NCBI GenBank assembly: GCA_038231435.1
Contig: JBBRLJ010000006.1
Location: 1 to 64,000 of the forward strand
Length of the DNA stretch: 64,000 bases
Source of the DNA: Planctomycetota bacterium
GTDB lineage: Bacteria; Planctomycetota; UBA11346
Direction of reading: 5' to 3'
In this document: positions 11,810-58,026 of the stretch, in pieces
Layout of the letters: each line of letters begins with the position of its first letter
Numbering within the stretch: position 1 is the stretch's first letter
Translations under genes and position numbers: made by a program
The notes under the pieces: model-generated
Told to the model about the DNA's origin: nothing
Databases searched by the model: none
The model's input: the letters and a program-made list of their open reading frames with translations, nothing else

Positions 11810-12075
11810 CAAGCCGGGGGGAGGGAGAAGATCGAAGGGAGCAAAGGGGAAGATCGAAGGGGGAAGTTGGAAGAGGGAAGAGCGAAGGAACATGAGCGCC
11901 GGTGGTTGTGGGACGACATCCGATCTCGCGTGGCCTGCCGCCGCACACCAGCCCTTCGGCCTCCCCTTCCTTCCCCCTTCACTCTTCGCTCTTCCCTCTT
12001 CCGGCTTCCAACCTCTCCCCTTCCCCCTTCTTCCCCTCCCCCGCCGTCTTCCCTCTTCTCCCGCCCCCTCCCTGG
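11810..12075. repeat. Purine-rich and inverted pyrimidine-rich heptamer tracts
   Basis: GGAAGAGGGAAGAGCGAAG (11869-11887) is the exact reverse complement of CTTCGCTCTTCCCTCTTCC (11984-12002). Confidence 0.8.
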
Positions 12076-12101
12076 CTACGATCCCGATCCCCGGAGGACG
12101 C

Positions 12102-12314
12102 GTGAACATCATCTCCAATGACGCGTGGCAGAAGATCCAGCCCGAATTGACGAAGCTCTGCCCGCGGCTGACCGTGGTCGATCTCCAGGAAGCCCAGCAG
12201 CGCATCGACCTGCTGATCGCGAAGATCCAGAACCGCCATTGGATCAGCCGCACCGAGGCCCGCCGCGTGATCCTGGGGATCATGTCGCGCGCCGGAGTCC
12301 CCGCCGGCGTCTGA
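12102..12314 (+). CDS. Small CsbD-like protein
   Basis: GGAGG SD, GTG start; WQKI...LTVVDL...LIAKIQNRHWISRTEARR resembles the CsbD/YjbJ pattern. Confidence 0.65.
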   Translation: MNIISNDAWQKIQPELTKLCPRLTVVDLQEAQQRIDLLIAKIQNRHWISRTEARRVILGIMSRAGVPAGV

Positions 12315-12447
12315 ACCGCGTGACGGCTCGCCTGGCCTGTGCCACGTGGTTCCGCTCGCGCTGGCGCCTTGCGCCGCGAACCGATGGTTGGCGATCGCGG
12401 GTGCCGCACCAGATCCCGTGTCCTCACGAGCCAGAAGAACGCGAGCC

Positions 12448-14592
12448 ATGACCACCACCGATACCTCGAATCCCCTGTTCGCCTGCGAGGCGCCGCCGCG
12501 CTTCGACCTCATCCGCCCCGAGCACATGGTGCCCGCGGTGCGCGAGCTCGCGCCGCGCATGCTCGCGGACCTGGCCGCGCTCGAGACCCGGCTCGCGAGC
12601 GGCGAACCGACCTGGTCGACGGTGGTGACTCCGCTCACCGCGCTGTCCGAGCCGCTGCGCTTCGCGTGGGGGGTCATCAACCATCTCAAGGGCGTGCGCG
12701 ACTCCACCGAGCTGCGCCAGGCGCGCGAGGCGGTACAAGGCGAGGTGGTGCAGGCCTTCCTGCGCCTCGCCCAGAGCCAGGCCTGCTACCGCGCCATGAA
12801 GCGCCTGCGCGGCGGGCCTGAATGGGCGTGGCTCGACGGCACGCAGCGGCGCATCCTCGAAGCCGCGCTGCGCGATGCCGAACTCTCCGGTGTCGGGCTC
12901 GAAGGCGCCGAGAAGGCGCGCTTCCAGGCCATCGCGCTCGAGCTCGATGAACTCGGCACGCTCTTCGCCAACCACCTGCTCGACGCCAACAAGGCGTTCT
13001 CGCTGACCCTGACAACGCCCGACGAGATCGCTGGCCTGCCTCCGACCCTGCTCGCGCAGGCGGCCCAGGCCGCCCGCACCGCGGCCACTGCAGCGGCCGA
13101 TCCGTCATCCCCGACCGCGCCGCTCCAGATGGCGAGTGCGGATGCCGATGCGGGCCCCTGGCGCATCACCCTCGACGGGCCGTCGTACATCCCATTCATG
13201 GAACACAGCCGGCGGAGCGATCTGCGCGAAAGCCTGTACCGCGGTTTCGTCACGCGCGCATCCTCGGGGGATACCGACAACCTGCCGCTGGTCGAACGCA
13301 TCCTGCGCCTGCGCGATGAGCAGGCGCGGCTGCTCGGGCGCGCGAGCTACGCCGAGGTCAGCCTCGCCGCCAAGATGGCGCCCAGCGTCGCGGCGATCGA
13401 ATCCCTGTTGGCCGAGCTGCGCGCCGCCGCCCGGCCCAAGGCGCGCACCGAGCTCGACGAGCTCACCGCGTTCGCGCGCAGCGAGTCCGGCCACGCCAGG
13501 CTCGAGCTGTCGCTGTGGGACGTGCCGTTCTGGGCTGAGCGCCTGCGCGAGCGCCGCTATGCCTACACCGACGAGCAGCTGCGACCGTACTTTCCGTTCG
13601 CGCGCGTGCTCGACGGGCTGTTCGCGCTCGCCAATCGCCTGTTCGGGGTCACCGTGCGCGCCGCCGACGGCGAGGCGGCGGTGTGGGAGCCGTCGGTACG
13701 CTTCTTCCGCATCGCCGACGAGGCTGGCCGCGACATCGCCGCGTTCTACCTCGATCCATACAGCCGCCCGGCCGACAAGCGCGGCGGCGCGTGGATGGAC
13801 AACGCCCTCGACCGCAAGCGCCAGGCCGATGGCGCGCTGCGCCTGCCGGTGGCGTACCTGGTCTGCAACCAGACGCCGCCCACCGGCGACACGCCGTCGC
13901 TGATGACCTTCCGCGAGGTCGAGACGCTGTTCCACGAATTCGGCCACGGCCTGCAGCACATGCTGACCACCGTCGAGCACATCGAGGCCGCCGGCATCAA
14001 CAACGTCGAATGGGACGCGGTCGAGCTGCCCAGCCAGTTCATGGAGAACTGGTGCTACCATTGGCCGACGCTCGAGCGCATGGCCCGCCATGTCCGCACC
14101 GGCGAGGCGCTGCCGCGCGAGCTCTTCGACAAGATATGCGCCGCGCGCACCTACCGCGCCGGCGCCGCGACTCTGCGCCAGGTCTACCTCGCGACCCTCG
14201 ATCTCGAACTGCACCACCGCTACCGTCCCGACGACGAGGACGACGAGGACGGCGTGCTCGCGGTCACCAGCCGCGTCGCGTCGGAGAACACCGTGCTGCC
14301 CCCGCTCGAGGAGGACCGCATGCTCTGCGGCTTCTCACACATCTTCGGCGGCGGCTACGCGGCGGGATATTACAGCTACAAGTGGGCCGAGGTGCTCAGC
14401 GCGGATGCGTTCTCCGCGTTCGAGGAGGCGGGGCTCGATGATGCGGCGGTGGTGGCGAAGACCGGGAGGCGGTTTCGGGATACGGTGTTGGCGCTCGGAG
14501 GGAGCAGACATCCGTTGGAGGTGTTCACGGAGTTTCGGGGGCGGGGACCGAGTCCGAAGGCGTTGTTGAGGCAGACGGGGCTGGTTGGGTAG
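12448..14592 (+). CDS. prlC: Oligopeptidase A (M3 family)
   Basis: KRGGAWM, TLFHEFGHGLQH, WDAVELPSQFMENW, FSHIFGGGYAAGYYSYKWAEVL. Confidence 0.95.
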   Translation: MTTTDTSNPLFACEAPPRFDLIRPEHMVPAVRELAPRMLADLAALETRLASGEPTWSTVVTPLTALSEPLRFAWGVINHLKGVRDSTELRQAREAVQGEVVQAFLRLAQSQACYRAMKRLRGGPEWAWLDGTQRRILEAALRDAELSGVGLEGAEKARFQAIALELDELGTLFANHLLDANKAFSLTLTTPDEIAGLPPTLLAQAAQAARTAATAAADPSSPTAPLQMASADADAGPWRITLDGPSYIPFMEHSRRSDLRESLYRGFVTRASSGDTDNLPLVERILRLRDEQARLLGRASYAEVSLAAKMAPSVAAIESLLAELRAAARPKARTELDELTAFARSESGHARLELSLWDVPFWAERLRERRYAYTDEQLRPYFPFARVLDGLFALANRLFGVTVRAADGEAAVWEPSVRFFRIADEAGRDIAAFYLDPYSRPADKRGGAWMDNALDRKRQADGALRLPVAYLVCNQTPPTGDTPSLMTFREVETLFHEFGHGLQHMLTTVEHIEAAGINNVEWDAVELPSQFMENWCYHWPTLERMARHVRTGEALPRELFDKICAARTYRAGAATLRQVYLATLDLELHHRYRPDDEDDEDGVLAVTSRVASENTVLPPLEEDRMLCGFSHIFGGGYAAGYYSYKWAEVLSADAFSAFEEAGLDDAAVVAKTGRRFRDTVLALGGSRHPLEVFTEFRGRGPSPKALLRQTGLVG

Positions 14593-14684
14593 GGAGAGGA
14601 GGGGAAGAGGGAAGAGGGAAGAGATATAGGCGCGTTTTTTGTGGGGCTCTCCTCGGAATCGCGATCGTAGCGGACGTGCTCGCA

Positions 14685-14744
14685 GTCAAGGCTGATCGGC
14701 GGGGCGCCGATCGCCGCGGAGGAACCGCGGTTGGCAGCCTTGAC
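14685..14744. repeat. Hairpin upstream of the four-helix-bundle gene
   Basis: GTCAAGGCTG...CAGCCTTGAC enclosing CCGCGGAGGAACCGCGG. Confidence 0.75.
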
Positions 14745-14787
14745 AGCTGCGCGCGACCGCTGGGGGGTTGCGAAGGAGAGCACAGCC

Positions 14788-15129
14788 ATGGCTCAGTTTG
14801 AAAAGCTCGTCGTGTGGCAGAAGGCGCAGGATTTCGCGATTGCGGTCGAGATGGGGACGCGCGGGATGCGTACCGATGCGGCATCACAGCTACGCCGGTC
14901 GGCGGCTTCCATCCCCGACAACATCGCGGAAGGATCCGAGCGCGGCACCTCCGCGCAGTTCGCGCACTTCCTCGGGATCTCCAACGGATCCTGCGCGGAA
15001 GCGCAGAGCCAGCTGCGCCGCGCGCATGCGTGCGGCTATCTCGATCGCGATGCGTTCCTCGATCTGATCGATGCGGCGCAGCAGATCGGCTGGATGATCG
15101 CAGCGCCGCGCCGGCGGTGGACGACCTGA
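14788..15129 (+). CDS. Four-helix-bundle protein (23S rRNA IVS / S23-like family)
   Basis: FEKLVVWQKA, SQLRRSAASIPDNIAEGSERGT, FAHFLGISNGSCAE; AAGGAG SD. Confidence 0.92.
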   Translation: MAQFEKLVVWQKAQDFAIAVEMGTRGMRTDAASQLRRSAASIPDNIAEGSERGTSAQFAHFLGISNGSCAEAQSQLRRAHACGYLDRDAFLDLIDAAQQIGWMIAAPRRRWTT

Positions 15130-15232
15130 CGGTCTCACGGCGGGGGCCGTAGCCGCCGCTGCAAACCCACCGCCGCTGCCATACGCTCAGATCCTCGCAT
15201 CTCTGCGTATCCGTTCTCCGTGCGCCCCTCCC

Positions 15233-15327
15233 CGCGATCGGCATCGGAGTCAAGGCTGGCCGCCCCGGCCACCGCGGTTCCTCCGCGGTTCCTCCGCGGC
15301 ATGGCCTTGACGCCGATGCCGGTCGCG
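15233..15327. repeat. Hairpin downstream of the four-helix-bundle gene, inverted relative to the upstream one
   Basis: GTCAAGGC...GCCTTGAC enclosing (CCGCGGTTCCT)x2 CCGCGG, with extended stem CGCGATCGGCATCGG/CCGATGCCGGTCGCG. Confidence 0.75.
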
Positions 15328-15454
15328 ACAATCGCGCTGCTAGGGAGAACGCCCACCATCAACATGCCGTCGGCTGCCCCTCGAGCCCTCGTGCCCTCCA
15401 GCCCTCGCAGCCCTCTTCCTTCTCCGTCTCTGGAGATGAAGCAGCGGAACGAGG

Positions 15455-15591
15455 GAAGAGGTGAAGAGGTGAAGAGGTGAAGAGGGAGGCAGAAGAGAAA
15501 TTGGGCTCGAAGGCTCGAAGGCTCGAAGGCTCGAAGGCTCGAAGGCTCGAAGGCTCGAAGGCTCGAAGGCTCGAAGGCTCGAAGGCTCGAA
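15455..15591 (+). repeat. Octamer tandem repeats (GAAGAGGT)x3 and (GGCTCGAA)x11
   Basis: Read directly at 15455-15478 and 15504-15591. Confidence 0.95.
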
Positions 15592-15740
15592 AATCGATGC
15601 CTGGGCCTGAATGCAACCCGGAGGTCTACCACAGACACCTCCCACTATTCGAGCCTCACAGCCTCCAGGCCTCCGAGCCTCTTCCGCTGTCGCCTATCGA
15701 CATCGATCACGCATCGCCGAGAATCGACGCGATTCCGACC

Positions 15741-16565
15741 ATGCCTCCCTCCGACCTCGTCCTCCACCTCAATCGCCCGGTGATCGCAGCCGAAGCCGGC
15801 CTCTTCCTCTCACGCGGCCGCGGCATCCATCCCGACCGCATCGCCCAGGGCCACGAGCTGATCGCGGTGCGGCGGGGGACGCTGCACATGGAGGAGGACG
15901 GTCGCCCCTTCACCGTCGCCGCGGGCGAGACGCTGGTGCTGTGGCCCGATCGCCGGCACCGCGGTACCGCGGCCTACGACCGCGATGTCGAATTCTACTG
16001 GCTGCATTTCCGCGTGCCGTCCGCGTCCGGCGCGCGCGGGCCGTTGGTGACGGTGCGCCAGCAGGCGCGGCCGCGGCGACCGCAGCAGCTGCGCGAGTAC
16101 CTGCACCGCTACCTGGACGACCGCGCCGCGCGACACGACAACGCCATGGCTGCTAGCCTGCTGGCGATGCTGATCCTGTGTGAGGTGGCGAGCGGAACCC
16201 CGCCCGGGGCGGAGGCGTCGGCCGCGGCTGCGCTCGCCGCGCGCGCCGAGACCTGGATCGCGACGCACTTCCACGACGCGATCAGCACCAGCGACGTCGC
16301 GCGTGGCCTGGGATGCAATCCCGACTATCTCGGCCGGGTCTTCCGCAGCGCGCACGGCCACACCATCGTCGATGCCATCCATCGCCATCGCCTCGAGGAC
16401 GCCCGCCGCCTGCTGATCGAGGGCACGGGCGACATCGCCGCGATCGCGCACGAATGCGGCTATGGGAATCTCGGCCACTTCCGTCGCCACTTCCGTCGCC
16501 ACACCGGCCTCGCGCCGCTCGCCTACCGTTCGCTGCACACGCGCGGCTACGTCAACTCGCGCTGA
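15741..16565 (+). CDS. AraC family transcriptional regulator
   Basis: Cupin N-terminus (HELI, FYWLHF) and double HTH (VARGLGCNPDYLGRVF, IAHECGY...FRRHTG). Confidence 0.92.
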   Translation: MPPSDLVLHLNRPVIAAEAGLFLSRGRGIHPDRIAQGHELIAVRRGTLHMEEDGRPFTVAAGETLVLWPDRRHRGTAAYDRDVEFYWLHFRVPSASGARGPLVTVRQQARPRRPQQLREYLHRYLDDRAARHDNAMAASLLAMLILCEVASGTPPGAEASAAAALAARAETWIATHFHDAISTSDVARGLGCNPDYLGRVFRSAHGHTIVDAIHRHRLEDARRLLIEGTGDIAAIAHECGYGNLGHFRRHFRRHTGLAPLAYRSLHTRGYVNSR

Positions 16566-16580
16566 GCGCGCTCGGGTCTC

Positions 16581-18803
16581 TCAGGGCGCGACCGGCACCA
16601 GGCGGAAGGCCGCGTCCCTGCCGCGGTCCTCGCGGTTCGCCTTGGGAAATGCCTCGCGCGGAGTGAGCGCGCGCAGGATCGGCGCCACGTCGATCACCGC
16701 CGCGCGTCCCGGCTCGACCACGACCGGCGTCGGCTCGACCAATGCGGCGGCTCCGGTCCAGGGATCGAACCAGGTCGCGCGGTAGCGTCCGGCGGGCAGG
16801 CCGTCGAAGGCGATGCCGCCGGTGGCGTCGCCCGCGAAGAACCAGCCATGGAGCTCGGGTCGGGCATCGCGCGTGGCCAGGGCGAACGCGCGTACCCCGC
16901 CGACACCGGTCACGCGCGGAGCGGTCTCGCCCGATACGGCGGGCGGGCGCAGCCGATCCGGATCGAGGCCGGCGAGGAACACACGCAATGCCCGCAGCTG
17001 CGCGGCATTGTCGACGGGGTAGTGATCGTGGTCGAATGGCCCGGCGCCCGCCCTCCAGCGCGCCTCGCCGAACTCCTTGCCGTCGTCCCAGTCCATGACC
17101 GTGCCGCTCTCGCCCGAGAACACCGCGGCCCAGATGCCGTGGTGGTAGAGCGTCGGGTACAGCGCCGATGGCGCATCGCTCGGATCGCCGCGATCGGCCG
17201 CGCCGAACTCGCTGATCAGGCGCGCCTGGCCGCCTGCGCCTGGCCGCGACGAGAAAGCGGCGACGCCGTCGATGACGTGGTTCCACACGTCCTTGTAGGT
17301 CGAGTGCGATGGCCAGGTCGGATACCAGTGCCAGCCGACAACGTCCGGCCGCGCATCCGCGAGCGGCCCGCCGTCCCACGCGATGTTGCCCTCGGGGGCG
17401 AACTCGGAGCCGATGCTGGTGGTCGCGGCGTGGAGCGGATGGTGGAACGGATCGCCGGCGTAGGCGAGGCCGTCGGCGCGCGATAGCGAGCCGCGCATCA
17501 GCCTGACCATGTCGGCGAGCCAGCGCGAGCAGTCGGGATGGGCCCACCAGCCGGTCTTCAGCGCCATGATGCCATGCTCGTCTCCGACTCCGTCGAGCTC
17601 GTCGATCAGTACCCACAGGCCGAGCGCGCGCGACGACCCCCAGCGCGCGATCAGGTAGCGCACGTAGTCGGCCTGGTAATCGAACAGCCGTGCCCGCCAG
17701 TCATCGCTCGCAACGCGCGGATCGGCGGCGAAGAATGACCACGCGTCGCCCGCGTGGAACGCGCTGAAGCCATTGAGTTTCGCCGGAGCGCTGGCGCCGC
17801 CATCGTCGGCGACGCTCCAGCCGCTCTCGTTGCGGCCCCAGGCGTGCGACTTCATCTGGAAGCACTGGTGCGGCAGCGGCGACAGCAGCATGCGCACGGT
17901 GGGTTTCCCGGCGGAGCCTTCGCACGAGGCCACCAGCCGATCGAAGGCCTTCGCCCGACCCTGATCGTAGCTCGACCACGACATCCAGGCCGCAGCCGCA
18001 GGCAGCGGCTCGCGCGCCCAGCCGCCATCGTCGCCGCGCCAGTGCTCGGCGCGATCACAATGCACGAGCAGGAATTCCCACGGCGCCATCCACTGGTTCA
18101 GCAGGTCGAAGCCGTTCTCGCGCAGCATCGGCAGCAGGTCGCGGTCGCGGTCGATGCCCTCGCACGCCGCCCAGCCGCCGACCGCAGGATCGCTGGCCAC
18201 CACCCAGGCGCGGCAGGCGCCGAACAGCCAACGCGCGCGCGTGCCGCCGTCGCTCTCGCGGCTGCGCAGGTATGCGGGATGCTCGGATCCGCTCGGAGCC
18301 ACCAGCGGCCCGGCGATGCCGGGTTCGACGCTCGCCAGGATCGTTCCCGGGAGCGCGATCCCGGTGTCGCCGGAACGCGCCCCCATGGCGCCGGCGCCGT
18401 GCAGCGCCACCCGCCAAGCGCCGGCGCGCTGGGGCGACCAACGCACCCGCCAGCGCCAGGGCCCCCCGCGCTGATCGCGCATCGCGAACGCGGGCACGGT
18501 GATGGCCTCGCCAGGATTCCCGGCATCGGGGGTGAAGGTCGCCTGGACGCGAGCCCAGGTGCCTTCGCGATCAGCGTCATAGGCGTCGTGGACCTGGTCA
18601 TCGGGAAGCTCGGCGATGAAGGCCAGCTCGCCGGAGAAGGTCAGGTCGAGCTCGGTGGTGACGAAGACCGTGGCCCCGGTTGGCAGCTGGGCCGACACGG
18701 CATCGGCCGCGCCCAGGTACGCAGCCGCGCACCACGCTCCACACACCGTAGCGCAGACCACCGCCGCCCGGGCGATCGACGGGCACATGGCGTAGCGATG
18801 CAT
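16581..18803 (-). CDS. Secreted putative clan GH-A glycoside hydrolase (DUF5060-like N-domain, TIM barrel)
   Basis: Signal peptide; WRVRWSP..GAW, YVRYLIARWG, WVLIDE, HWY, LISEFG, GRYRATWFDPWTG. Confidence 0.6.
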   Translation of the reverse strand: MHRYAMCPSIARAAVVCATVCGAWCAAAYLGAADAVSAQLPTGATVFVTTELDLTFSGELAFIAELPDDQVHDAYDADREGTWARVQATFTPDAGNPGEAITVPAFAMRDQRGGPWRWRVRWSPQRAGAWRVALHGAGAMGARSGDTGIALPGTILASVEPGIAGPLVAPSGSEHPAYLRSRESDGGTRARWLFGACRAWVVASDPAVGGWAACEGIDRDRDLLPMLRENGFDLLNQWMAPWEFLLVHCDRAEHWRGDDGGWAREPLPAAAAWMSWSSYDQGRAKAFDRLVASCEGSAGKPTVRMLLSPLPHQCFQMKSHAWGRNESGWSVADDGGASAPAKLNGFSAFHAGDAWSFFAADPRVASDDWRARLFDYQADYVRYLIARWGSSRALGLWVLIDELDGVGDEHGIMALKTGWWAHPDCSRWLADMVRLMRGSLSRADGLAYAGDPFHHPLHAATTSIGSEFAPEGNIAWDGGPLADARPDVVGWHWYPTWPSHSTYKDVWNHVIDGVAAFSSRPGAGGQARLISEFGAADRGDPSDAPSALYPTLYHHGIWAAVFSGESGTVMDWDDGKEFGEARWRAGAGPFDHDHYPVDNAAQLRALRVFLAGLDPDRLRPPAVSGETAPRVTGVGGVRAFALATRDARPELHGWFFAGDATGGIAFDGLPAGRYRATWFDPWTGAAALVEPTPVVVEPGRAAVIDVAPILRALTPREAFPKANREDRGRDAAFRLVPVAP

Positions 18804-18858
18804 GCAGAAGAGGTACCGCCGCGCGGGCGCCGCCGTTGAGATGGGCGGGGCGAGCGCA

Positions 18859-18886
18859 TTGACCGCACCCGTGGGCCGGATACGCT
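18859..18886 (+). promoter_or_regulatory. Sigma70-type promoter for the thrS leader
   Basis: TTGACC-N16-TACGCT. Confidence 0.5.
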
Positions 18887-18895
18887 GCTTTTTCC

Positions 18896-18940
18896 ATGTG
18901 CGCCCCGCGAACGACGACTCCTGAGCGAACTATCGGCTGA
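18896..18940 (+). CDS. Putative Thr-rich leader peptide MCAPRTTTPERTIG
   Basis: ATG...ACG ACG ACT...ACT...TGA just after the promoter, ending 100 nt before thrS. Confidence 0.5.
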   Translation: MCAPRTTTPERTIG

Positions 18941-19039
18941 CGCGTCCCCAACAGGTCGCGACGCGTCCCGGTTTCCAGTCGTTCCGCATCCCCCGCGCAT
19001 TCGTCACCGAATGAGCTTCTCCGAATGAAAGGGCGCTCC

Positions 19040-21019: not shown

Positions 21020-21070
21020 CCGCGTTGAATCCCGTGCTGATCGCGATGGGTGCGGCCATCCACCTTCACG

Positions 21071-21352
21071 AAACTCACCCCGACCGCCGAGCCCTGGTCT
21101 GCGTGATACAATGGGCGTAGCCCATCACGCAGACTATTCAGCTGCTCCCGCAGCTGAATAGAAGGGCGACAAAGGTGCGCAGGGGCCCGGGGGCAGAGCC
21201 CCTGAAAGTACTGTCCGTAAAACTCACCCCGACCGCCGAGCCCTGGTCTGCGTGATACAATGGGCGTAGCCCATCACGCAGACTATTCAGCTGCTCCCGC
21301 AGCTGAATAGAAGGGCGACAAAGGTGCGCGGGGGCCCGGGGCAGAGCCCCCT
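21071..21352 (-). repeat. Structured repeat subfamily A3, two tandem near-identical copies
   Basis: Copies at 21071-21204 and 21220-21352; reverse strand has GGGGCTCTGCCCC, CTTTGTCG, bulged hairpin, CTCGGCG. Confidence 0.92.
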
Positions 21353-46684: not shown

Positions 46685-46870
46685 CGCCCTCCTTGTACGC
46701 GGCGGTGGCGGAGAGCCAAGACGGCAGGCCACACCAGTCTACGCCGTTGATCCGCCTGTGGCGTGCTCCCGACACCTGATGCCACCAACTCGCACCCCGT
46801 CATGCCGTTCGCTGTCCGTCGTCTGCTTTCGGCTTTCTCCTTCCTGCTTAAAGCTCTCCGCTCTTCCCCC

Positions 46871-48220: not shown

Positions 48221-49575
48221 ACCGGCCCGCCTTGGAAGCGGTAGAGTCGCGGAAGGCCCAGCAGGATTGACAGCTCTTCGAGCGCGACGCGGCTCTCGTC
48301 GAGCAGGCGCTCGTCGCGCAGATCGGCGATCGAGAGTTCGCGGCGATAGCGCCGGTCGACCCACTGTTCGAGTTGCCGCAGCTTGTCCTCGTCAAGCACG
48401 ATGCCCGCTGGCAGCGCGGCGAGTTCGCGCGCGTTCAGCGGCACGCGCAGGCGCAGGCACGCAGGGCCGCCTCCGCCCATCATGCTCTCGCGCAGGTCGA
48501 TGAACTCGACGCGGTCGACGAAGCCGTCGGCGCGCAGGCGGTCGATGACCGCGCGCGCAGTGCCGTCCGCGCTCTCGGCGGGCGCCACCAACGCGACGCC
48601 GCGCGGAGTGTGCAGGATCTGGCTGTTGAAGAGGTACGAGCGCACCGCCTGATCGAGCGCGAGCTCGGCCTCGCCGACCACCGCCACGCGCAGCTCGCCT
48701 GCGTGCGCGGCGAGGTCGGCGAGCACCCGCGGCTGGTCGACCAGGGCGCGCTCGTGGATCAGGATCCGCTCGCGCGAACCGACCATGACCACATCGTTGT
48801 GGAAGGCGCCGGCATCGATGGCCGCGGGATGCTGGCGCGCATGCACGACCGCCTTGGCGCCGCCGAGCCGCGCCGCGGCGGCGGAGGCCTCGCGCCATTG
48901 GCGCGGGGCGAAGCGCCGGGGCAGCTCCTCGGCGCTGGTCGACGCCGAGCGCCCGTGCACGAACAGGTGGCAGGCGCCGGCCGGGCCGACCGCGCGGTGG
49001 TGGTTGGCCGCGCCTTCGTCGCCCAGCGCGGCGGTGGACGGCAGGGGATCGTGGACCACGAAGCGCTGGCCATCGGCGAAGATGCGGCGCAGCATGCGCG
49101 CGCGCGGCTCGGCCTCGAGCGCGCGGTGCGGCATCGCCGCGAGATTGGCCGTGATCAGGTGGCAGAGCCCGTCGGGGCTGTCGCTGGATGGGATGACGGT
49201 GGCGCAGTTCGCCGTCCACATGAACGCGCTCGAGCAGGCGTGACGCAGCAGCTGGGGCTCGGCCTTGGCGGCCTGCGCGACGATCTGCGCGTCGCTGCCG
49301 GCGAAGCCGAGCCGGCGCAGGAAATCGACCTCGGGCCTGGGCAGCGGCGGCAGCACCGCCTGGGTCACGCCCAGCGCCATGACCACGCGCATCTTCGCCA
49401 GGCACTGGCGCGCCGCGGCGCGCGGATTGGCCTTGGCGCCAGCGTTCGCCTGGCTGGCGAGATTGCCGGGGCTGAGTCCGCCGTGGAAGCTGGTCGGCCC
49501 GGGCAGGCCGTCGAATTGGACTTCGGTTTCGACGGCGTCGGCGTGCGGCGTGCGGGGTGCGACGTGCGGCGACAT
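48217..49575 (-). CDS. astB: N-succinylarginine dihydrolase
   Basis: EVQFDGLPGPT, GNLAS, DEGAANH, GAFHNDV, SYLFNSQ, GGGPACLRLRV. Confidence 0.95.
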   Translation of the reverse strand: MSPHVAPRTPHADAVETEVQFDGLPGPTSFHGGLSPGNLASQANAGAKANPRAAARQCLAKMRVVMALGVTQAVLPPLPRPEVDFLRRLGFAGSDAQIVAQAAKAEPQLLRHACSSAFMWTANCATVIPSSDSPDGLCHLITANLAAMPHRALEAEPRARMLRRIFADGQRFVVHDPLPSTAALGDEGAANHHRAVGPAGACHLFVHGRSASTSAEELPRRFAPRQWREASAAAARLGGAKAVVHARQHPAAIDAGAFHNDVVMVGSRERILIHERALVDQPRVLADLAAHAGELRVAVVGEAELALDQAVRSYLFNSQILHTPRGVALVAPAESADGTARAVIDRLRADGFVDRVEFIDLRESMMGGGGPACLRLRVPLNARELAALPAGIVLDEDKLRQLEQWVDRRYRRELSIADLRDERLLDESRVALEELSILLGLPRLYRFQGGPV

Positions 49576-49635
49576 GAACGGCAGTTTCCCCCTCTCGGCG
49601 CTTGCCGCCATCCTGAAATGGCATCCTCTGACGCC

Positions 49636-50484
49636 ATGACCGATCGTACCTCAGACGCCGCATCCCGCACCCCGCACCCCGCACTGCCGCCGTTGGCCTT
49701 CATTGGCGGCGGCAACATGGCCACGGCGATGATCAACGGCCTGCGCGCGCTGCCTCAGGCTCCAGCCATCACGGTGGCCGAGCCCGATCCCGGCAAGCGC
49801 GCGTCGTTCACCGCGCTCGGGCTGGTCGCCACCGCCGACAACGGCATGGCCACCGCGTCGGCCGGACTGGTGTGCCTGGCGATCAAGCCGCAGATGGGCG
49901 CGCAGGTGGTGCCCGAGATCGGCGCCGCGTGGGCGACCGACAAGCTGCTGGTCTCGATCCTCGCCGGCACGCCGACCGCGAAGCTCGCCGGCTGGCTGCC
50001 GCGCGGCGCGCGCGTGGTGCGTGCGATGCCGAACACCCCGCTGGCAATCGGCAAGGGCATGGTCGGCCTATGCCGGGGTGAACACGCCACCGAGGCCGAT
50101 CTCGCGGTGGCCGAGGCGCTGTTCGCGCCCTGCGCGAAGGTGTTGCGCGTGAGCGATGAATCGCGCATGGATGCGGTCACCGCGGTCTCGGGCAGCGGAC
50201 CCGCCTATTTCTTCGCCTTCGCCGAGGCGCTGGTCGCGGCGGCAGAACGGCTCGGTTTCACCCGCGACGAAGCGGTGCTGCTGGTCGGGCAGACCGGCGC
50301 CGGCGCATGGGACTACCTGCTCGGCAGCGGCTTCGAGGCCAGGCGTCTGCGCGAACAGGTGACCAGCCCGGGGGGTACCACCGCGGCGGCGCTGAAGGTG
50401 CTCGACGATGCGGGTTTCGCCGCGCTCATCGATAAGGCCCTGGCCGCTGCGGAGCGGCGCGGCCGCGAGCTCGCGAAGCTGTAG
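49636..50484 (+). CDS. proC: Pyrroline-5-carboxylate reductase
   Basis: FIGGGNMA, RAMPNTP, TAVSGSGPAY, VTSPGGTT. Confidence 0.96.
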   Translation: MTDRTSDAASRTPHPALPPLAFIGGGNMATAMINGLRALPQAPAITVAEPDPGKRASFTALGLVATADNGMATASAGLVCLAIKPQMGAQVVPEIGAAWATDKLLVSILAGTPTAKLAGWLPRGARVVRAMPNTPLAIGKGMVGLCRGEHATEADLAVAEALFAPCAKVLRVSDESRMDAVTAVSGSGPAYFFAFAEALVAAAERLGFTRDEAVLLVGQTGAGAWDYLLGSGFEARRLREQVTSPGGTTAAALKVLDDAGFAALIDKALAAAERRGRELAKL

Positions 50485-50621
50485 CGGCGCGAATCTGTAT
50501 CCGCGCGAAGTTGAAGCCGCGCGGTGCTTAAGCCGCACGATGCCTAGCCGCGCGAAGCCGTTGCCGAGAGTCGAGAAGGTCGCCAAGAAAGCCGCCTCGC
50601 ATGGACGCGGCGGTGGTTTCG

Positions 50622-51113: not shown

Positions 51114-51247
51114 GGCGAGAGGGTGCCAGCGCGGCGGCGCGCGCAATCCGCCGCTCGGCGGCGCGGGCCGGCAGCGCCGTCCAGCCCAGGGAACCCTTTC
51201 GCTAGCGCGGAAGAATCGGACCCTAATGCTCTCGGTGAGAGGTCACC

Positions 51248-51748
51248 ATGGACATCGGCGCCAATTCGATCGTCAGCATGCACTACCGCGTCGCCACCGC
51301 CGAGGGACAACACGTCGACCAGAGCGAGGAAGGTCAACCGATGGTCTACATGCACGGCCACGGACAGATCATCCCCGGACTCGAGGCCGCGCTGATAGGT
51401 CACAAGAAAGGCGAGAAGATCGAGGCCGAGATCGCGCCCGCCGACGCCTACGGCGACTACGACGCCGGACTCGACCTCAAGGTCTCGAAGGATCTCTTCC
51501 CGAAGGATGTGCAGAAGAAGCTGAAGCCCGGATTCCAGTTCATGGCCGAGCACCCCACCAAGGAGGGCGAGAACGTCCTCTTCACCGTCCACAAGATCGA
51601 GGACGACGCGGTGCTGGTGAGCGGTAACCATCCGCTCGCCGGGCAGCGCCTGCTTTTCAAGGTCGAGGTCGTGGACGTGCGCCCGGCCACCGAGGAGGAG
51701 CTGTCGCACGGCCACGCCCACGGTCCTGGTGGCCACCACCACCACTGA
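51248..51748 (+). CDS. slyD: FKBP-type peptidyl-prolyl isomerase SlyD
   Basis: HGHGQIIPGLE, AYG, NHPLAG, His-rich tail. Confidence 0.95.
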   Translation: MDIGANSIVSMHYRVATAEGQHVDQSEEGQPMVYMHGHGQIIPGLEAALIGHKKGEKIEAEIAPADAYGDYDAGLDLKVSKDLFPKDVQKKLKPGFQFMAEHPTKEGENVLFTVHKIEDDAVLVSGNHPLAGQRLLFKVEVVDVRPATEEELSHGHAHGPGGHHHH

Positions 51749-51860
51749 GATCAGGTCTCTACGAGAGTGCACGTCGCTTGGCGCCTGGGCCCGGTCGCCC
51801 CTGTCCCACCCTGCGGGGCCAGCCCTGGCGCCGGCTGGTCGCGCCCTAGGCTGCTTCGCG

Positions 51861-52634
51861 ATGCGGCACGCGACGGATCCTGACGGCGTCTTGGCGGTGA
51901 TCCCGGCCTATAACGAAGCCGGCCGGATCGTTGCGGTCATCGAGGGTCTGCTGGCGATCGGCCTGCCCGTGCTGGTGGTCGACGACGGCAGCCGCGATGG
52001 CACCGGCGACGCGGCGCGCGCCGCGGGCGCGCGGGTGCTGCGCAAGATCAATGGCGGCAAAGGCACGGCGATCCTCGCGGGCTGCGCCTGGGCGATCGAG
52101 CGCGGCTTCGCGAAGGTGGTGCTGCTCGACGGCGACGGCCAGCACGATCCGCGCGAGGCTCTGCGCCTGATCCGTTCCTCGGGCCGCGCCGATCTGGTGA
52201 TCGGCAAGCGCGTGCTCGGCCTGTCCGCCCAGCCGCTCTACCGCCGCGTCTTCAATCGCCTGAGCAGCCTGCTGGTCACGCTCGCCGCGGGACGCCGCAT
52301 CATCGACAGCCAGAGCGGCTTCCGCATGTGCGATCCCCGACTGCTGCTGCGCCTGCCGCTCGCTGGCCTGCGCTACGATCTGGAAAGCGAGCTGTGCGTG
52401 CTCGCCGCGCGCGCCGGCATGCGCATCTCCGAGGTGCCCATCTCGGTGATCTACAACGACAAGCGCTCCGGCGTCCATCCGGTCTACGATACCGCCCGCT
52501 TCGTGCGCGCGGTGGCTCGCAGCGTGGTCAGCAGTCGCCCGCGCCTGCGACCGGTGCGCATTCCGGCGGCTGCGACTCCCCTGGCGCCGGCCGCCGCGCA
52601 AGGTCTTGCGCTCGCCTCCTCAGCCGCTTCCTAG
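51861..52634 (+). CDS. Family 2 glycosyltransferase (DPM1-like)
   Basis: VIPAYNE, VVDDGSRDGT, DGDGQH, DSQSGFR. Confidence 0.92.
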   Translation: MRHATDPDGVLAVIPAYNEAGRIVAVIEGLLAIGLPVLVVDDGSRDGTGDAARAAGARVLRKINGGKGTAILAGCAWAIERGFAKVVLLDGDGQHDPREALRLIRSSGRADLVIGKRVLGLSAQPLYRRVFNRLSSLLVTLAAGRRIIDSQSGFRMCDPRLLLRLPLAGLRYDLESELCVLAARAGMRISEVPISVIYNDKRSGVHPVYDTARFVRAVARSVVSSRPRLRPVRIPAAATPLAPAAAQGLALASSAAS

Positions 52635-52660
52635 CGCCCCAGCGCCGCTACGGTGTGGCG

Positions 52661-54574
52661 ATGGCTACGCCCCCGACCATCCGCCAGCTTCCCGAGATCG
52701 TCGCCAACCAGATCGCGGCTGGCGAAGTCGTCGAACGCCCCGCCGCGGTGGTGAAGGAGCTCGCCGAGAACAGCCTCGATGCCGGCGCGCGCCGCGTGAT
52801 CGTGCGCTGCGAGGATGGCGGACGGCGCCTGGTCGAGGTCGAGGACGACGGCCACGGCATGCGCCCTGGCGATCTGCGCCTCGCGATGTCGCGCCACGCC
52901 ACCAGCAAACTATCGACCGCCGAGGACCTGTTCCGCGTCGGCACCCTGGGCTTCCGCGGCGAAGCCTTGCCATCGATCGCGGCGGTGAGCGAATTCTCGC
53001 TCGCGAGCCGGCCGCACGGCGCCGAGATGGGCCAGCGCCTGGCGCTCAGCGGCTCGCGCGAGGACGCCTACGAGGCTTGCGCCATGGCCGCCGGGACCCG
53101 CGTGACGGTGCGCAACCTGTTCTGGAACGTGCCCGCGCGGCTCAAGTTCCTCAAGAATGAGGCCTCCGAGACCGGCCATGTCACCGAGCAGGTCATCCGC
53201 CTCGCGCTCGGGCACCCGCGCGTCGCCTTCCGACTCGAGACCGGTGGCCGCGCGCCCGTGGATCTGCCGGCCGACCAGACGCTCGAGCTGCGCGTGTGCG
53301 CGCTGTTCGGCAAGGGCTTCGCCGACAGCTTGCTGGCGGTGGCTGAGAGCAACGAGGGCATGCAGCTCGCCGGCTTCGTCGCGCATCCGCGCGAGGCCAA
53401 GCCGACGGCGAAGCGCCAGTATTGCTTCCTCAACGGCCGCTTCGTGCGCGACAAGCTGCTGCTGGCCGCGGTGCGCGAGGGCTTCAAGGGCTTCCTCGAG
53501 CCGCGCCTGCATGGCGCGGTGTTCCTGCACCTCGATCTCGATCCCGCGCTGGTCGACGTCAACGTGCATCCGACGAAATCCGAAGTGCGATTCCGCCGCG
53601 AGAGCGAGGTCTTCGTGCTGGTCAGCCGCGCCCTGCGCCGCGCGCTCGAAGCCAACAGCGGGAATTTCAGCCTGCTCACACCAGCTGATGCGGCGCTGCA
53701 ATCGTCGGCGCGACCGGCGGCGCCCTACCGCGAGATCGTCAAGCCGGCTTTCGCGCCCACGGCGCCGACGGTGCAGGAACGCTACCTGCCGCATACGCCG
53801 ATGACCCACGAGGCGCCTCGACAGGCCCCCGCGACGGTGGCTCATTCCATCTCCCCGGCAAATCCTGGTGCGGCGCCCGTTCGCGAGCGCGCCGCCGAGC
53901 CCGCGAGCGGCTACTCAGTCAGGGACTCGGCGAGGGACTCCGCGCGCGGGGTCGTCATCGCCGCGCGCGGTCCGGCCGAGGATTCCGCACGCGATACCAG
54001 CATGCCCGCCGGCGTGCGGCGCGTGCTGCAGCTCAATCGCATGTACCTGCTGATCGAGACCGACGACGGCGTGCGCATCGTCGACCAGCACGCCCTGCAC
54101 GAGAAGGCGCTGTTCCTGTGCCTCGATCCGGCGATCGGCGATTTCACCGCCGGCGGCCGCCAGGAGCTGCTCATTCCCAAGACCATCGAGCTGACCGCCG
54201 CCGAGGTCTCTGCCGTCGAACCGCTGCTGCCGAGCCTCGAGGCGCACGGCATCCACGCCGAGGTCTTCGGCCCCACCTGCGTGCTGGTGCGCTCGAGCCC
54301 GGCCGCGCTCAAGCGGCTGAACTGGGTGGCCTTCTTCTCGGGCCTCGCCGATTCGGGCTCGGGCGCCAAGGCCGCGGGCACCATCTCGGAGCGCATCGCG
54401 CACAGCGCCGCGTGCCATGGGGCGGTGAAGGCCGGCCAGGAGCTGGCCCCGGAAGAGCAGCTCGAGCTGGTGCGCCTGCTCTACCGGCTCGAACACATGG
54501 AGCACTGCCCGCATGGGCGGCCGACGACGCTCGATCTTGGTTGGGGCGAACTCGCCCGCCGATTCCAGCGCTGA
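52661..54574 (+). CDS. mutL: DNA mismatch repair endonuclease MutL
   Basis: NQIAAGEVVERP, GFRGEAL, DVNVHPTK, DQHALHE, CPHGRP. Confidence 0.97.
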   Translation: MATPPTIRQLPEIVANQIAAGEVVERPAAVVKELAENSLDAGARRVIVRCEDGGRRLVEVEDDGHGMRPGDLRLAMSRHATSKLSTAEDLFRVGTLGFRGEALPSIAAVSEFSLASRPHGAEMGQRLALSGSREDAYEACAMAAGTRVTVRNLFWNVPARLKFLKNEASETGHVTEQVIRLALGHPRVAFRLETGGRAPVDLPADQTLELRVCALFGKGFADSLLAVAESNEGMQLAGFVAHPREAKPTAKRQYCFLNGRFVRDKLLLAAVREGFKGFLEPRLHGAVFLHLDLDPALVDVNVHPTKSEVRFRRESEVFVLVSRALRRALEANSGNFSLLTPADAALQSSARPAAPYREIVKPAFAPTAPTVQERYLPHTPMTHEAPRQAPATVAHSISPANPGAAPVRERAAEPASGYSVRDSARDSARGVVIAARGPAEDSARDTSMPAGVRRVLQLNRMYLLIETDDGVRIVDQHALHEKALFLCLDPAIGDFTAGGRQELLIPKTIELTAAEVSAVEPLLPSLEAHGIHAEVFGPTCVLVRSSPAALKRLNWVAFFSGLADSGSGAKAAGTISERIAHSAACHGAVKAGQELAPEEQLELVRLLYRLEHMEHCPHGRPTTLDLGWGELARRFQR

Positions 54575-54580
54575 CTTTTT

Positions 54581-54659
54581 GTTGGGGGGCTACGGCCCCC
54601 CAACATCGGCCTCCGGCCTGCCCCCCAGACAGCTGGGGGACCTGGGGTGGGACGGCGGA
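54581..54659 (+). repeat. Family B-related hairpin repeat
   Basis: GTTGGGGGGCTACGGCCCCCCAACATCG...CTGCCCCCCAG...GACGGCGGA; second copy at 56526-56603. Confidence 0.8.
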
Positions 54660-54693
54660 CTACTGGTGATTGCGATCCTGATGCTTTCTTGAG

Positions 54694-55578
54694 TCAACGC
54701 AGACGCGGGGTCTTCTTGCCATGCTTCTGTTCCCGCCAGGTGCTGGCGGAACAGCCGGCGATGGCGGTGAAGGATTTGGCGAAGTGCTGGGATGAGGAGA
54801 AGCCGAGGTCGAGGGCGATCGCGGTGATGGCGGCGTCGCTGGTGGCGAGTTGGTGCTTGGCGCGCTCGATGCGTTGGCGCAGCAGGTACTGGCGCGGCGA
54901 GACGCCGACCTCGTGGGTGAAGAGGTTGACCAGATGGTTGGGCGACATGCCGACCAGGCGGCCGAGCTCGATGAGGCGCCAGGCCTGCTCGGGATGACTC
55001 TCGATCAGGTGCTTGGCCTTGGTGACCGCCGGATGCATGGGGATGAGCGGATCGCCGCGCCGCGCGCCGGCGGCGGCCTCGAGCAGGCGCGTCGCCTCGA
55101 TGACCACGGTGTCCAGCGCCGCGCGCAGGCCCTCGGCGCGATGCGGCTGGGCCATGGTGACTTCGCGCACTAGTTGGCGGAACGGCGGCTCGATGGCTTC
55201 GGCGTTCTCGATGCGCAAGAACGAGCCCTTCCGCCACGGCCCCGCCAGGCCGGGCAGGCGCGCGAAGACGGCATCGAGGTCGACGATGGCGAAGACGAAG
55301 TGGTGCTTGCGGGTAGAGCTGTCGACCAGGCGGTGCTCGACGTCGGGCGGCGCCGCGTACATGTCCCCTGGCCCGAGTTGCACGCCACCGCGCGCGCTCC
55401 GCCAACGCGACACCCCGTCGAGCTGCAGGTACAGCTCCCAGGCATGATGGGCATGTACGCCGATCTCGCGCTGCCTGGGGAACCACTGCTCGCCCAGGGC
55501 CAGCAGCTCAGGCACCGTCTCGTCAGGTGCATCGGCATGGAATCCGGCGATGACGCCGTGGGGTCTGACGTACTGCAT
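54694..55578 (-). CDS. AraC family transcriptional regulator
   Basis: Cupin HAHHAWE, HTH ending IALDLGFSSSQHF. Confidence 0.92.
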   Translation of the reverse strand: MQYVRPHGVIAGFHADAPDETVPELLALGEQWFPRQREIGVHAHHAWELYLQLDGVSRWRSARGGVQLGPGDMYAAPPDVEHRLVDSSTRKHHFVFAIVDLDAVFARLPGLAGPWRKGSFLRIENAEAIEPPFRQLVREVTMAQPHRAEGLRAALDTVVIEATRLLEAAAGARRGDPLIPMHPAVTKAKHLIESHPEQAWRLIELGRLVGMSPNHLVNLFTHEVGVSPRQYLLRQRIERAKHQLATSDAAITAIALDLGFSSSQHFAKSFTAIAGCSASTWREQKHGKKTPRLR

Positions 55579-55648
55579 GGCGTAATATTTGATACATGTG
55601 CGATGCGCGCGGACAAGCCCCGGCGCCGCGTGCGGAGATGATCCCGAC

Positions 55649-56596
55649 ATGGACTTCCTGCTGACGGACGAGGAACGCGCCCTGCTGCCAACCGAGGACG
55701 AGGTCGAGTCCTTCCGCGAGCGCGGCTGGTACATCTCGCGGCCGCTGTTCACCGCCGAACGCCTGGCGCGCGTGGTCGCTGCCAGCGAGCGCTTCTACAC
55801 CGGTGAACGCGACATGCCGATGCCCGACGGCAGCGCCGACTACAAATGGACCTGGAAGCCCGAGCACGGCGATGGACTGCGCAAGAGCGACTATTCGTCG
55901 CTGCAGAACCGCGAGCTCCAGGCGCTGGTGCGCTCGCCGATCCTGGGCGCGATCGCCGCGGTGCTGACCGGGTCGGACGAGATCCGGCTGTGGCACGATC
56001 AACTGCTGTACAAGCCGGTCGACTCAGGCGAGCGCAACAACAGCGTCGGCTGGCACACCGATCGCGGTTATTGGAAGACCTGCTCGTCGAGCGCGATGCT
56101 CACCGCGTGGGTGCCGTTCCACGATTGCGACGCCACGATGGGCACCGTCAGCATGATCGATGGCAGCAACCATTGGCCGGACAACACCGAGAAGCTGAAC
56201 TTCTTCGATCCGAACCTCGAAGCGCTCGAACGCCAGTTCATCACCGGCGGGAAACCGGTGGTGAAGGTGCCGATGGAGCTGCGCGCCGGGCAGGTCAGCT
56301 TCCACAGCTGCCTCACCATCCATGGCAGCGGCCAGAACCGCTCCCACCGCCCTCGCCGCTCGATCGCCATCCACATGCAGGACGCCTCCAACCGCTGGCA
56401 GGAATACCGCCACGCCGACGGCAAGCTCGCCACCCACGCCAACGACGACTTCGCGCGCAAGCTCGACGGCAATCCAGACTACAGCGATCCCGCCATCTGC
56501 CCCGTGCTGTGGAGCGGTGCTGTCGGTTGGGGGACTACGGCCCCCCAACATCGCGCTCTGCGCTGCCCCCCAGGAAGCAGGACGGCCGAGGTTTGA
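55649..56596 (+). CDS. PhyH-family Fe(II)/2-oxoglutarate dioxygenase
   Basis: HDQLLYKP, WHTD, LTAWV, FH...IHGSGQN...RR. Confidence 0.9.
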   Translation: MDFLLTDEERALLPTEDEVESFRERGWYISRPLFTAERLARVVAASERFYTGERDMPMPDGSADYKWTWKPEHGDGLRKSDYSSLQNRELQALVRSPILGAIAAVLTGSDEIRLWHDQLLYKPVDSGERNNSVGWHTDRGYWKTCSSSAMLTAWVPFHDCDATMGTVSMIDGSNHWPDNTEKLNFFDPNLEALERQFITGGKPVVKVPMELRAGQVSFHSCLTIHGSGQNRSHRPRRSIAIHMQDASNRWQEYRHADGKLATHANDDFARKLDGNPDYSDPAICPVLWSGAVGWGTTAPQHRALRCPPGSRTAEV

Positions 56597-56603
56597 CGGC
56601 GGA
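56526..56603 (+). repeat. Family B-related hairpin repeat overlapping the 3' end of the PhyH-family gene
   Basis: Matches 54581-54659. Confidence 0.8.
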
Positions 56604-56672
56604 TGTCGCGCCCCATCCCTCCTTCCTCCCCTCTCCCCTTCACGCGGGCGTGCACGTGGACACCATGCGCGC

Positions 56673-57950
56673 ATGGATACCGCCCCCGCCCAGGCCCTCT
56701 GTCGCTTCATCGATGATTCGCCGAGCCCGGCGCATGCCGCGACCACGTTGTCGCGCGGCCTGGCCGCGGCTGGATTCGCAGAGGTGCAGGCCGAGCGTCC
56801 GGACTGGGGTCTGTCTCCCGGTCGCTACCAGGTGCGCCGGGGCGCGAGCGTGGTCGCGTTCATCGTGCGCGGCAGCGATCCGAACCGGTTCTCGCTCGTC
56901 GGCGCGCACACCGACAGCCCGCACCTGCGCCTGAAGCCGCGGCCCGCCTTCCAGGCCGAAGGCTGCAGCCAGCTCGGGGTCGAGGTCTACGGCGGCGCGC
57001 TCCTGAACTCGTGGCTCGACCGCGATCTCGGCCTTGCCGGCACCGTGCACGGCGCCGACGGCACCGCGCGCCTGGTCTGCATCGACCGCCCGATCGCGCG
57101 CGTCGCGCAGCTGGCGATCCACCTCGACCGCAAGGTCAACGAGGACGGATTGAAGCTGAACCCCCAGACCCAGCTCGCGCCGATCTGGGGCCTCGCGCGC
57201 GCGGGCGGCGATGTCCAGGCGGAGTTCGCGACCCTGCTCGAGAAGGCCAGCGGCATCCCCGCGGCCGAGATCGTCGCCCACGACCTCTCGCTCTTCGATC
57301 TCACCGAGAGCCGTCTCGGCGGCGCGTCGGAGGACCTGATCCTGGCGCCGCGCCTGGACAACCTCGCCTCGTGCCATGCCGGACTGATCGCACTGGTCGC
57401 CGCCGGCGATGGCGAGCCCCGCACCGTGCCGGTGCTCGCCTGCCTCGATCACGAGGAGGTCGGCTCAACCAGCGACCGCGGCGCCGACGGCACCTTCGTG
57501 GGCATGGTGCTCGAACGCATCGCGCTCGAGCTCGGCCTGTCGCGCTCGGCCTTCCTCGCCGCGCTGTCGTCGAGCCTAATGATCTCGGCGGACATGGCGC
57601 ATGCCGCGCATCCGAACTACGCCGACCGCCACGAGCCGCGCCACAAGCCGCTGCTCGGCCACGGCCCGGTGCTCAAGTGCAACCACAACCAGCGCTACGC
57701 CACCTCGGGAGCCAGCGCCGCCGCCCTGCGCACCCTCGCCAGGCGCGCCGAGGTGCCGCTCCAGGACTTCGTCGCCCGCACCGATCTCGGCTGCGGCTCG
57801 ACCATCGGCCCGATCGCCGCCGCGCGCCTGGGCATGTCGGTGGTCGATGTCGGCAACCCGATGCTCTCGATGCATTCGGCCCGGGAATGCGCCGCCACTG
57901 CCGATCACCCGCTGTACATCGCGCTGTTGCGTGCGCACCTGGGCGCCTGA
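56673..57950 (+). CDS. M18 family aminopeptidase
   Basis: GAHTDSP, EVYGG, WLDRDL, RLDN, DHEEVGS, SADMAHA.HPNY, GSTIGP, SMHS.RE. Confidence 0.95.
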   Translation: MDTAPAQALCRFIDDSPSPAHAATTLSRGLAAAGFAEVQAERPDWGLSPGRYQVRRGASVVAFIVRGSDPNRFSLVGAHTDSPHLRLKPRPAFQAEGCSQLGVEVYGGALLNSWLDRDLGLAGTVHGADGTARLVCIDRPIARVAQLAIHLDRKVNEDGLKLNPQTQLAPIWGLARAGGDVQAEFATLLEKASGIPAAEIVAHDLSLFDLTESRLGGASEDLILAPRLDNLASCHAGLIALVAAGDGEPRTVPVLACLDHEEVGSTSDRGADGTFVGMVLERIALELGLSRSAFLAALSSSLMISADMAHAAHPNYADRHEPRHKPLLGHGPVLKCNHNQRYATSGASAAALRTLARRAEVPLQDFVARTDLGCGSTIGPIAAARLGMSVVDVGNPMLSMHSARECAATADHPLYIALLRAHLGA

Positions 57951-58026
57951 GCGCTTCCACCGTACTTCGGCTGTCGCTCTTCCGCCTTCGTCTTCGCGCC
58001 TCCTCGGACCGGCCGCGATGTCCCGA

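Follow-up and report, generated by a model that had tools for sequence, protein, structure and literature searches.

The stretch of DNA analysed here, 64,000 nucleotides from a Planctomycetota bacterium (the window; G000:C6:1-64000, from an assembly, G000, of 5.2 Mb, 67% GC and 88% completeness), contains a 1.1-kb cassette in which a gene for a four-helix-bundle protein stands behind a conserved fold-back leader and between short tandem repeats. We give a probability of roughly 55% to the reading that this is a multicopy, transposase-free chromosomal cassette that is triggered by single-stranded DNA (ssDNA) and acts at transfer, a reading built from sequence and from analogy with known promoters. 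The leader itself is likely to be a fold-back ssDNA promoter, modelled with −35 and −10 boxes rebuilt on the template strand and pointing toward the gene; the role in transfer is less certain than this promoter step. The leader was missed in the original prediction, an earlier account of the repeats made from the letters of the window, and is the most informative part of the cassette. The reading draws on the observed anatomy of the cassette, covariation, box conservation, bubble geometry, purifying selection, gain and loss between relatives and a halo of altered codons in neighbouring genes, and on the occurrence elsewhere of the leader's core before genes of conjugative leading regions.

Anatomy of the cassette

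The original prediction had treated 14593–15430 and 15450–15690 as separate repeat sites, one of them holding a single gene. They form one cassette, and its one intact gene is accompanied by a second, deleted gene and by two leaders:

14593–14623, plus strand: left G/A-rich arm, (GGGAAGA)3
14645–14797, plus strand: leader A, a conserved fold-back (model R1, 112 bits; fold z −5.2)
14689–14684 and 14669–14664, minus strand: −35 and −10 boxes of leader A, predicted from geometry
14740–14745 and 14773–14778: second −35 copy and Shine-Dalgarno sequence of leader A
14788–15129, plus strand: intact four-helix-bundle gene, subfamily A, 113 amino acids (aa; TIGR02436 89 bits, PF05635 96 bits)
15135–15208, minus strand: subfamily B gene remnant, with its start codon lost and an internal deletion; the first 12 and the last codons match subfamily B
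15199–15351, minus strand: leader B (R1, 87.6 bits), with predicted plus-strand boxes (−35 at 15307–15312, −10 at 15327–15332)
15378–15430, minus strand: period-8 array outside leader B, G-rich when read toward the leader
15450–15690, no strand: further period-8 hairpin, containing (GGCTCGAA)11 and regularly present at subfamily-B ends

The 11 copies of GGCTCGAA and the position of TTCGAGCC, at 15648, are as first described, and the layout of this last hairpin recurs before B genes on contigs C13, C23, C25 and C30. The subfamily A protein exceeds the curated cut-offs of both PF05635 and TIGR02436, matches Protein Data Bank entry 2GSC in sequence (E = 3e-9) and is all-helical in a single-sequence structure model of low confidence (pLDDT 53). 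Two Logan contigs cross the B remnant and show no difference; four DNA contig sets, all from a single study, break off at the repeats and give no joint that spans the cassette. The window copies sit between housekeeping genes, not in a conjugative leading region.

The assembly carries 17 four-helix-bundle genes, 12 of them in six tail-to-tail pairs, and a leader of ~140 nucleotides (nt), itself behind repeats, precedes all 16 that have upstream sequence; the relative G056 has 10 convergent pairs among 30 genes. Successive stages of decay are seen in G000, from loss of the second gene (C47) through leaders without genes (C28, C14) to a leader fragment (C25). A nucleotide profile found further gene fragments at G000:C56:27559-27691 and C12:26-100. 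In 17 pairs the dN/dS values are 0.09–0.34, which indicates purifying selection on the protein. Copies are 77–85% identical (dS 0.4–0.9), and this divergence, together with ends made of different repeat words, argues against an insertion sequence or a miniature inverted-repeat transposable element. In a tree of 76 proteins, subfamilies A and B are sisters and no branch separates leader-bearing genes from the rest (5 changes, with 2 or more rows mislabelled), so we do not claim a single origin. Elsewhere in the phylum, a 9.3-Mb single-contig genome (G026:C1) has 52 PF05635 matches, many with stops, and 14 reverse-transcriptase matches.

A predicted promoter on the template strand

Several features of the leader point to a promoter formed by the folded template strand. 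First, the core stem is 98% paired, with two-sided changes in 7 of 17 pairs and no one-sided change of the G–U type. Its covariation was matched by only 0–3 of 500 shuffles, although the structure was derived from the same rows, so that one control leans favourably.

Second, the template strand was read in 56 of 59 distinct leaders, 3 being dropped as unanchored, and carries a motif of TT(G/T)AC, 14 nt and then a hexamer, in which A−11 is present in 56/56 leaders and T−7 in 55/56. These are the two positions with established roles in the −10 box. When the template strand is folded, −19 to −12 are paired (0.46–0.91) and the strand is open from −11 (0.04) to −7 (0.11). The Shine-Dalgarno sequence begins at most 4 nt from the predicted +1 in 50 of 53 leaders. 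Further, of 54 leaders, 28 have the minihairpin motif GCGNAGC on the template strand and 7 have it on the sense strand; GNA triloops are stable in DNA.

Third, promoter-like spacers native to this genome peak at 15–17 nt (94, 55 and 43 cases), and those of 14 nt are at background (21). An outward promoter on duplex DNA was rejected on this result, given the 14-bp spacing of the boxes.

The leader core in other genomes

Matches to the leader model occur in 21 of the 48 genomes of the family and in 6 of 151 from the phylum, with 1–47 matches per genome. Three matches lay outside the family; only that in G069 looked real, and it precedes a four-helix-bundle gene. A pattern scan of the collection for the leader core returned at least 133 stretches, of which 80 with DNA were analysed, Planctomycetota loci being grouped by title. 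Among these listed matches, a four-helix-bundle gene follows 34 of 41 Planctomycetota loci and none of the other 39, of which 21 precede genes for DUF932, RadC, ArdB or ArdC. Pfam assigned 22 of 24 downstream proteins from the same list (DUF932 13, RadC 5, ArdB 2 and ArdC 2, one of the ArdC matches coming from a Phycisphaerae locus), and in its 23 gene-bearing loci the −10 box lies at 15 nt in 21 and at 14 nt in 1, with none in 1.

These core copies, in Gammaproteobacteria and Acidobacteria (L123–L199, L318:5677 and 6456), often stand in tandem. From sequence, they mark candidate ssDNA promoters before such genes in integrative conjugative elements. In G192, two copies precede radC and a DUF932 gene directly before mobC and a relaxase gene, in an element that also holds VirB, VirD4 and integrase genes; their place and direction are those of leading genes, and the F plasmid has ardB and a DUF932 gene there. 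Alphaproteobacterial core copies (L127, L139, L141, L152, L153, L156 and similar) run on into further palindromes and possibly belong to another type of element.

A blastn search of plasmids with a homologous leader gave one partial match, and 18 plasmid records contain the four-helix-bundle protein. A ComEC gene is present in G000 and likewise in 10 of 14 controls, and is thus uninformative.

A cytosine-poor halo in the flanking genes

Genes on both sides of the window cassette are altered in codon usage where they meet it:

14413–14592, plus strand: cytosine-poor halo, the last ~180 nt of an oligopeptidase A (prlC-like) gene
15741–15863, plus strand: mirror halo, G-poor, the first 120 nt of an AraC-family gene (C3 0.72 and G3 0.12, versus 0.50 and 0.39 mid-gene)

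In the last 120–150 nt of the prlC-like gene C3 is 0.07–0.08, versus 0.52 mid-gene; at 16 orthologous prlC ends without a cassette it is 0.28–0.70. With array codons masked beforehand, the 18 genes ending at cassettes have four-fold C of 0.09 and G of 0.77 in their last 60 nt, versus 0.45 and 0.39 elsewhere (p = 1e-11), an effect that fades by ~180 nt, and the 7 genes starting at cassettes show the mirror shift (p = 0.015). The shift is small at gene-less hairpins (p = 0.07) and at lone arrays (p = 1e-4). In relatives the shift is present at 16 of the 20 cassettes with a leader and at 8 of the 11 without one, with medians of +0.54 and +0.05 versus −0.22 (p = 0.027), in a comparison in which kin are not independent and a few cases are mislabelled. 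The local skew flips that had been ascribed to the repeats are thus marked at cassettes with a leader but slight at gene-less hairpins, and follow the leader more than the repeats.

Plain cytosine deamination is poorly supported as the cause: G, A and T gain about equally over C, and CGR→AGR rises to 0.67. Because C is lost by every synonymous route, selection fits better.

Repeat arrays and gene-less sites

Arrays were sought in G000 with TRF (score at least 50) and a lag detector, with a triplet-shuffled genome as control. TRF found 77 period-7 and 24 period-8 arrays, and none of either in the shuffle; the lag detector found 152 versus 0, of which 144 are intergenic or at gene edges. Period-7/8 inverted repeats are thus a feature of the whole genome, as had been proposed. 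The window holds the following sites besides the cassette:

11810–12075, no strand: gene-less period-7 hairpin flanked by a HIT gene and a gene for 70 aa
45530–45645, no strand: gene-less period-7 hairpin at the astA 3′ end
49533–49689, no strand: GTGCGGC-type hairpin whose arms encode the N-termini of the divergent astB and proC
46790–46870, no strand: degenerate C-rich tract at the astD 3′ end; at most a putative member of the system, by skew
57960–58005, no strand: degenerate C-rich tract between convergent genes; at most a putative member of the system, by skew

At all five sites for which a G-rich left and a C-rich right side had been described, the sequence begins with G exceeding C and finishes with C exceeding G, and the perfect arms of 19 bp (11869/11984) and 15 bp (45539/45614) were verified. 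The site described at 49543–49685 is indeed a repeat hairpin, but it lies within N-terminal codons of astB and proC instead of between genes, its arms being translated as N-terminal extensions of AstB and ProC. The two lone tracts are C-skewed; both array detectors missed them, and they may be due to chance.

Fixed polarity fared less well. Orientation is biased outside cassettes, where 28 of 39 hairpins are G-first (p = 0.009), but universal G-then-C polarity is rejected: over all hairpins 32 of 50 are G-first (p = 0.065), and orientation depends on the word, GAAGCT-type hairpins being purine-first in 9 of 9 cases and the reversed GTCCGTC type pyrimidine-first in 9 of 10. Neighbouring sites share a word family in 20 of 91 cases, versus 10 expected (p = 0.002). 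At G000:C4:49900-108200, GAAGAC-type hairpins of both polarities are clustered.

The proposal that gene-bearing and gene-less sites are filled and empty states of one system holds in part. The astA 3′ junction, gene-less in the window, is filled with a leader and a four-helix-bundle gene in the relative G018 (C663) and has an array in G015; in G002 (L096:1-270) it has two copies of a different palindromic repeat. Repeats come and go together with the gene at two operon junctions, and the decay series in G000 fits the same proposal. Against it, gene-less arrays gave no general signal of cassette remnants (1 match versus 5.3 expected), of 4 junctions that hold the gene in relatives 3 are clean in G000, and G015 has 11 arrays in 160 kb with no PF05635, TIGR02436 or leader match at 79% completeness. 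Its arrays, dense and of the GAAGCTC type, are in part unpaired. The junction orthologous to 11810–12075 has arrays with other words in G001, G002 and G015 and none in G018, and the astB/proC junction of G002 likewise has different words. Array density, estimated in relatives from samples of 80–240 kb, does not track the gene tightly: it is 200, 75, 17 and 0 per Mb in G033, G057, G056 and G004, which have the gene, and 69, 19, 4, 0 and 0 per Mb in G015, G008, G006, G016 and G032, which do not. The gene-less hairpins probably include both decayed cassettes and arms that were copied locally; their origin is where our account is weakest.

Four further observations concern the window near these sites. 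A short threonine-rich open frame and a hairpin at 18896–18940 precede thrS and are kept in G001 and G002; the frame is a possible attenuator leader peptide, judged by its sequence. In those two relatives prlC and thrS are adjacent; in the window ~4.3 kb lie between them (14593–18900: the cassette, the AraC gene and a 740-aa gene). Directly after thrS, at 21071–21350, is a 149-bp direct tandem duplication, 98% identical, and at 50472–50566, 3′ of proC, six degenerate copies of a 16-nt unit.

Proposed mechanism and alternatives

In our reading, expression of the four-helix-bundle gene would require an unpaired template strand, a state most likely to arise as the DNA enters another cell. In duplex DNA both boxes would point away from the gene, and their spacing is foreign to native promoters; once the strand has folded, transcription by RNA polymerase would begin at the ribosome site, which read-through RNA would bury in the same stem. 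A tail-to-tail pair would offer one expressible gene whichever strand enters. The halo is most readily explained if G is selected against in the 3′ tail that the template strand leaves on folding, and for the protein, a relative of Avd, we predict nucleic-acid binding and a benefit to the incoming strand, in its survival or its integration. A bolder version, which we consider rather unlikely as a whole, makes the cassette a selfish, transposase-free chromosomal element whose promoter was captured from conjugative leading regions, one per strand, and senses ssDNA during transformation or conjugal chromosome transfer; an Avd-like pentamer would act at the heptamer arms for cassette integration, and the element would seed bacterial heptamer arrays and rewrite synonymous codons of its host.

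Several observations weigh against the proposed role in transfer or the promoter itself. The leader folds well as RNA too (z −4.3 to −6.2 in 6/6), hiding the ribosome site by an anti-Shine-Dalgarno pairing that covaries. The −10 box starts with G in 38 of 56 leaders, and the non-template spacer of 14 is one shorter than in F and in the conjugative-element copies. Model R1 has no match in the F leading region at 52–68 kb (best E 0.58), so the tie to proven promoters rests on architecture. Among the listed matches, 17 mostly alphaproteobacterial core loci lack a clear gene or −10 box, and the core alone is therefore no promoter signature. Full conjugative context is established for one locus, and a relaxase-domain search of five such genomes gave nothing that ties a relaxase to these loci. 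Of 25 flanking genes, 18 have the 3′ end next to the cassette (p = 0.04), which fits a role of the halo at the mRNA level. Copies are only ~80% identical, with no recent burst, and G033 and G057, like many relatives, carry mostly single genes, so pairing is not required.

Some of these points would be expected if the leader acted as RNA, with a read-through transcript hiding the ribosome site until an Avd-like protein opened it or RNase III cut it, and with the halo keeping Rho, which favours C-rich RNA, off the incoming mRNA. The stable fold, the covarying pairing and the tendency of most flanking genes to read into the cassette suit this explanation, as do the heptamers, terminal stem and RNase III cleavage of the Coxiella intervening sequence in the portion of that account available to us (PMC4990558). 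We think it unlikely, since it leaves unexplained the invariant A and T at −11 and −7 on the opposite strand, the −35 word, the template-strand minihairpins, the absence of G–U pairs, the core before leading-region genes and the mirror halo in the 7 genes that read away (p = 0.015). A fold-back promoter that is real but fires within the cell, at supercoiling cruciforms or gaps at stalled forks, as a DNA-stress response spread by ordinary recombination, would suit chromosomal sites beside housekeeping genes, purifying selection and old copies, and the F hairpin ssp2 stalls DNA synthesis according to the part of the source consulted (10.64898/2026.01.09.698686). Patchy presence (21/48 family genomes), leader matches numbering 1–47 per genome and frequent decay look selfish instead, and make this quite unlikely.

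Two further explanations concern the repeats. Gene-less hairpins may be independent of the cassette, as intergenic 7-mers that slippage and template switching lengthened and that persist as RNA stems, a view compatible with an ssDNA-triggered cassette and somewhat doubtful in itself. It accounts for 152 arrays versus 17 genes, the lack of remnants, array-rich G015 without the gene and the word families shared by neighbouring sites (20/91 versus 10 expected), and convergent heptamer pairs are known in Xanthomonas from the accessible part of PMC4692102; yet at two operon junctions repeats and gene are gained or lost together, the filled orthologue exists in G018, G006, G016 and G032, without leader matches, have 0–4 arrays per Mb, and the period of 7 is left unexplained. 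A telomerase-like reverse transcriptase adding repeats at DNA ends, templated by leader RNA and partnered by the Avd-like protein, is very improbable. The G-rich strand usually points to the centre, as this would have it, and PF05635 resembles Avd (PMC10053308, seen in part), but many unrelated words stand behind near-identical leaders and one word family is reversed. A reverse-transcriptase origin of the repeats finds no support, PF00078 having no match in G000, G002 or G013, all multicopy and 71–88% complete.

Relation to known systems and significance

In the portions of the reports available to us, ssDNA promoters are described on conjugative elements only (PMC12672017, PMC13478746, PMC11541004, 10.64898/2026.01.09.698686). 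Those Frpo, ssi and ssp promoters resemble the leader, in the same portions, in a long template-strand fold-back that bears −35 and −10 boxes with −12 paired and the −10 core open, in short branched hairpins above the −35 and in a gene that begins directly beneath the stem. We take the F hairpin before ardB to be ssp2 on the basis of PMC13478746; it has the same layout with a 15-nt spacer. The cassette differs in being chromosomal and multicopy, with a four-helix-bundle gene and often one gene per strand, no oriT or relaxase adjoining, a 14-nt spacer and no sequence-level match to F.

Intervening sequences of 23S ribosomal RNA (rRNA), exemplified by Coxiella S23p, share the protein family, heptamer repeats and inverted ends, as far as the part of PMC4990558 at hand describes them, and leaderless PF05635 genes in heptamer hairpins occur in relatives. 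The cassette differs from them in its place outside rRNA, with flanks of protein genes and no Rfam match in the window (leader and rRNA included), and in its 140-nt leader, convergent pairs, differing arm words and strong halo. Avd of diversity-generating retroelements belongs to a related four-helix-bundle pentamer family (PMC10053308, in part; compare the 2GSC match), but G000 has no reverse transcriptase (0 PF00078 matches at 88% completeness; no search was made for template and variable repeats). The heptamer repeats known from Xanthomonas, Nostoc and Beggiatoaceae are likewise intergenic, often convergent inverted pairs and of unexplained origin, whereas several words and period 8 occur here in one genome; the accessible parts of the two reports mention no four-helix-bundle gene or promoter hairpin (PMC4692102, PMC4679880). 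Unlike REP/RAYT elements, the cassette has tandem repeats and a gene that is not a transposase. A literature search, with subscription papers mostly outside its coverage, found no publication joining these parts; the link to leading-region genes, the pairs with one gene per strand and the leader-specific halo appear to be new.

The cassette would join three open items: bacterial heptamer repeats, whose origin is obscure, the role of PF05635, a very common protein, and ssDNA promoters. In its halo, a short element reshapes ~60 codons of neighbouring genes, and the compact core pattern finds candidate ssDNA promoters before DUF932, RadC, ArdB and ArdC genes in integrative elements. For the four-helix-bundle protein itself, the reading predicts a condition under which it would appear.

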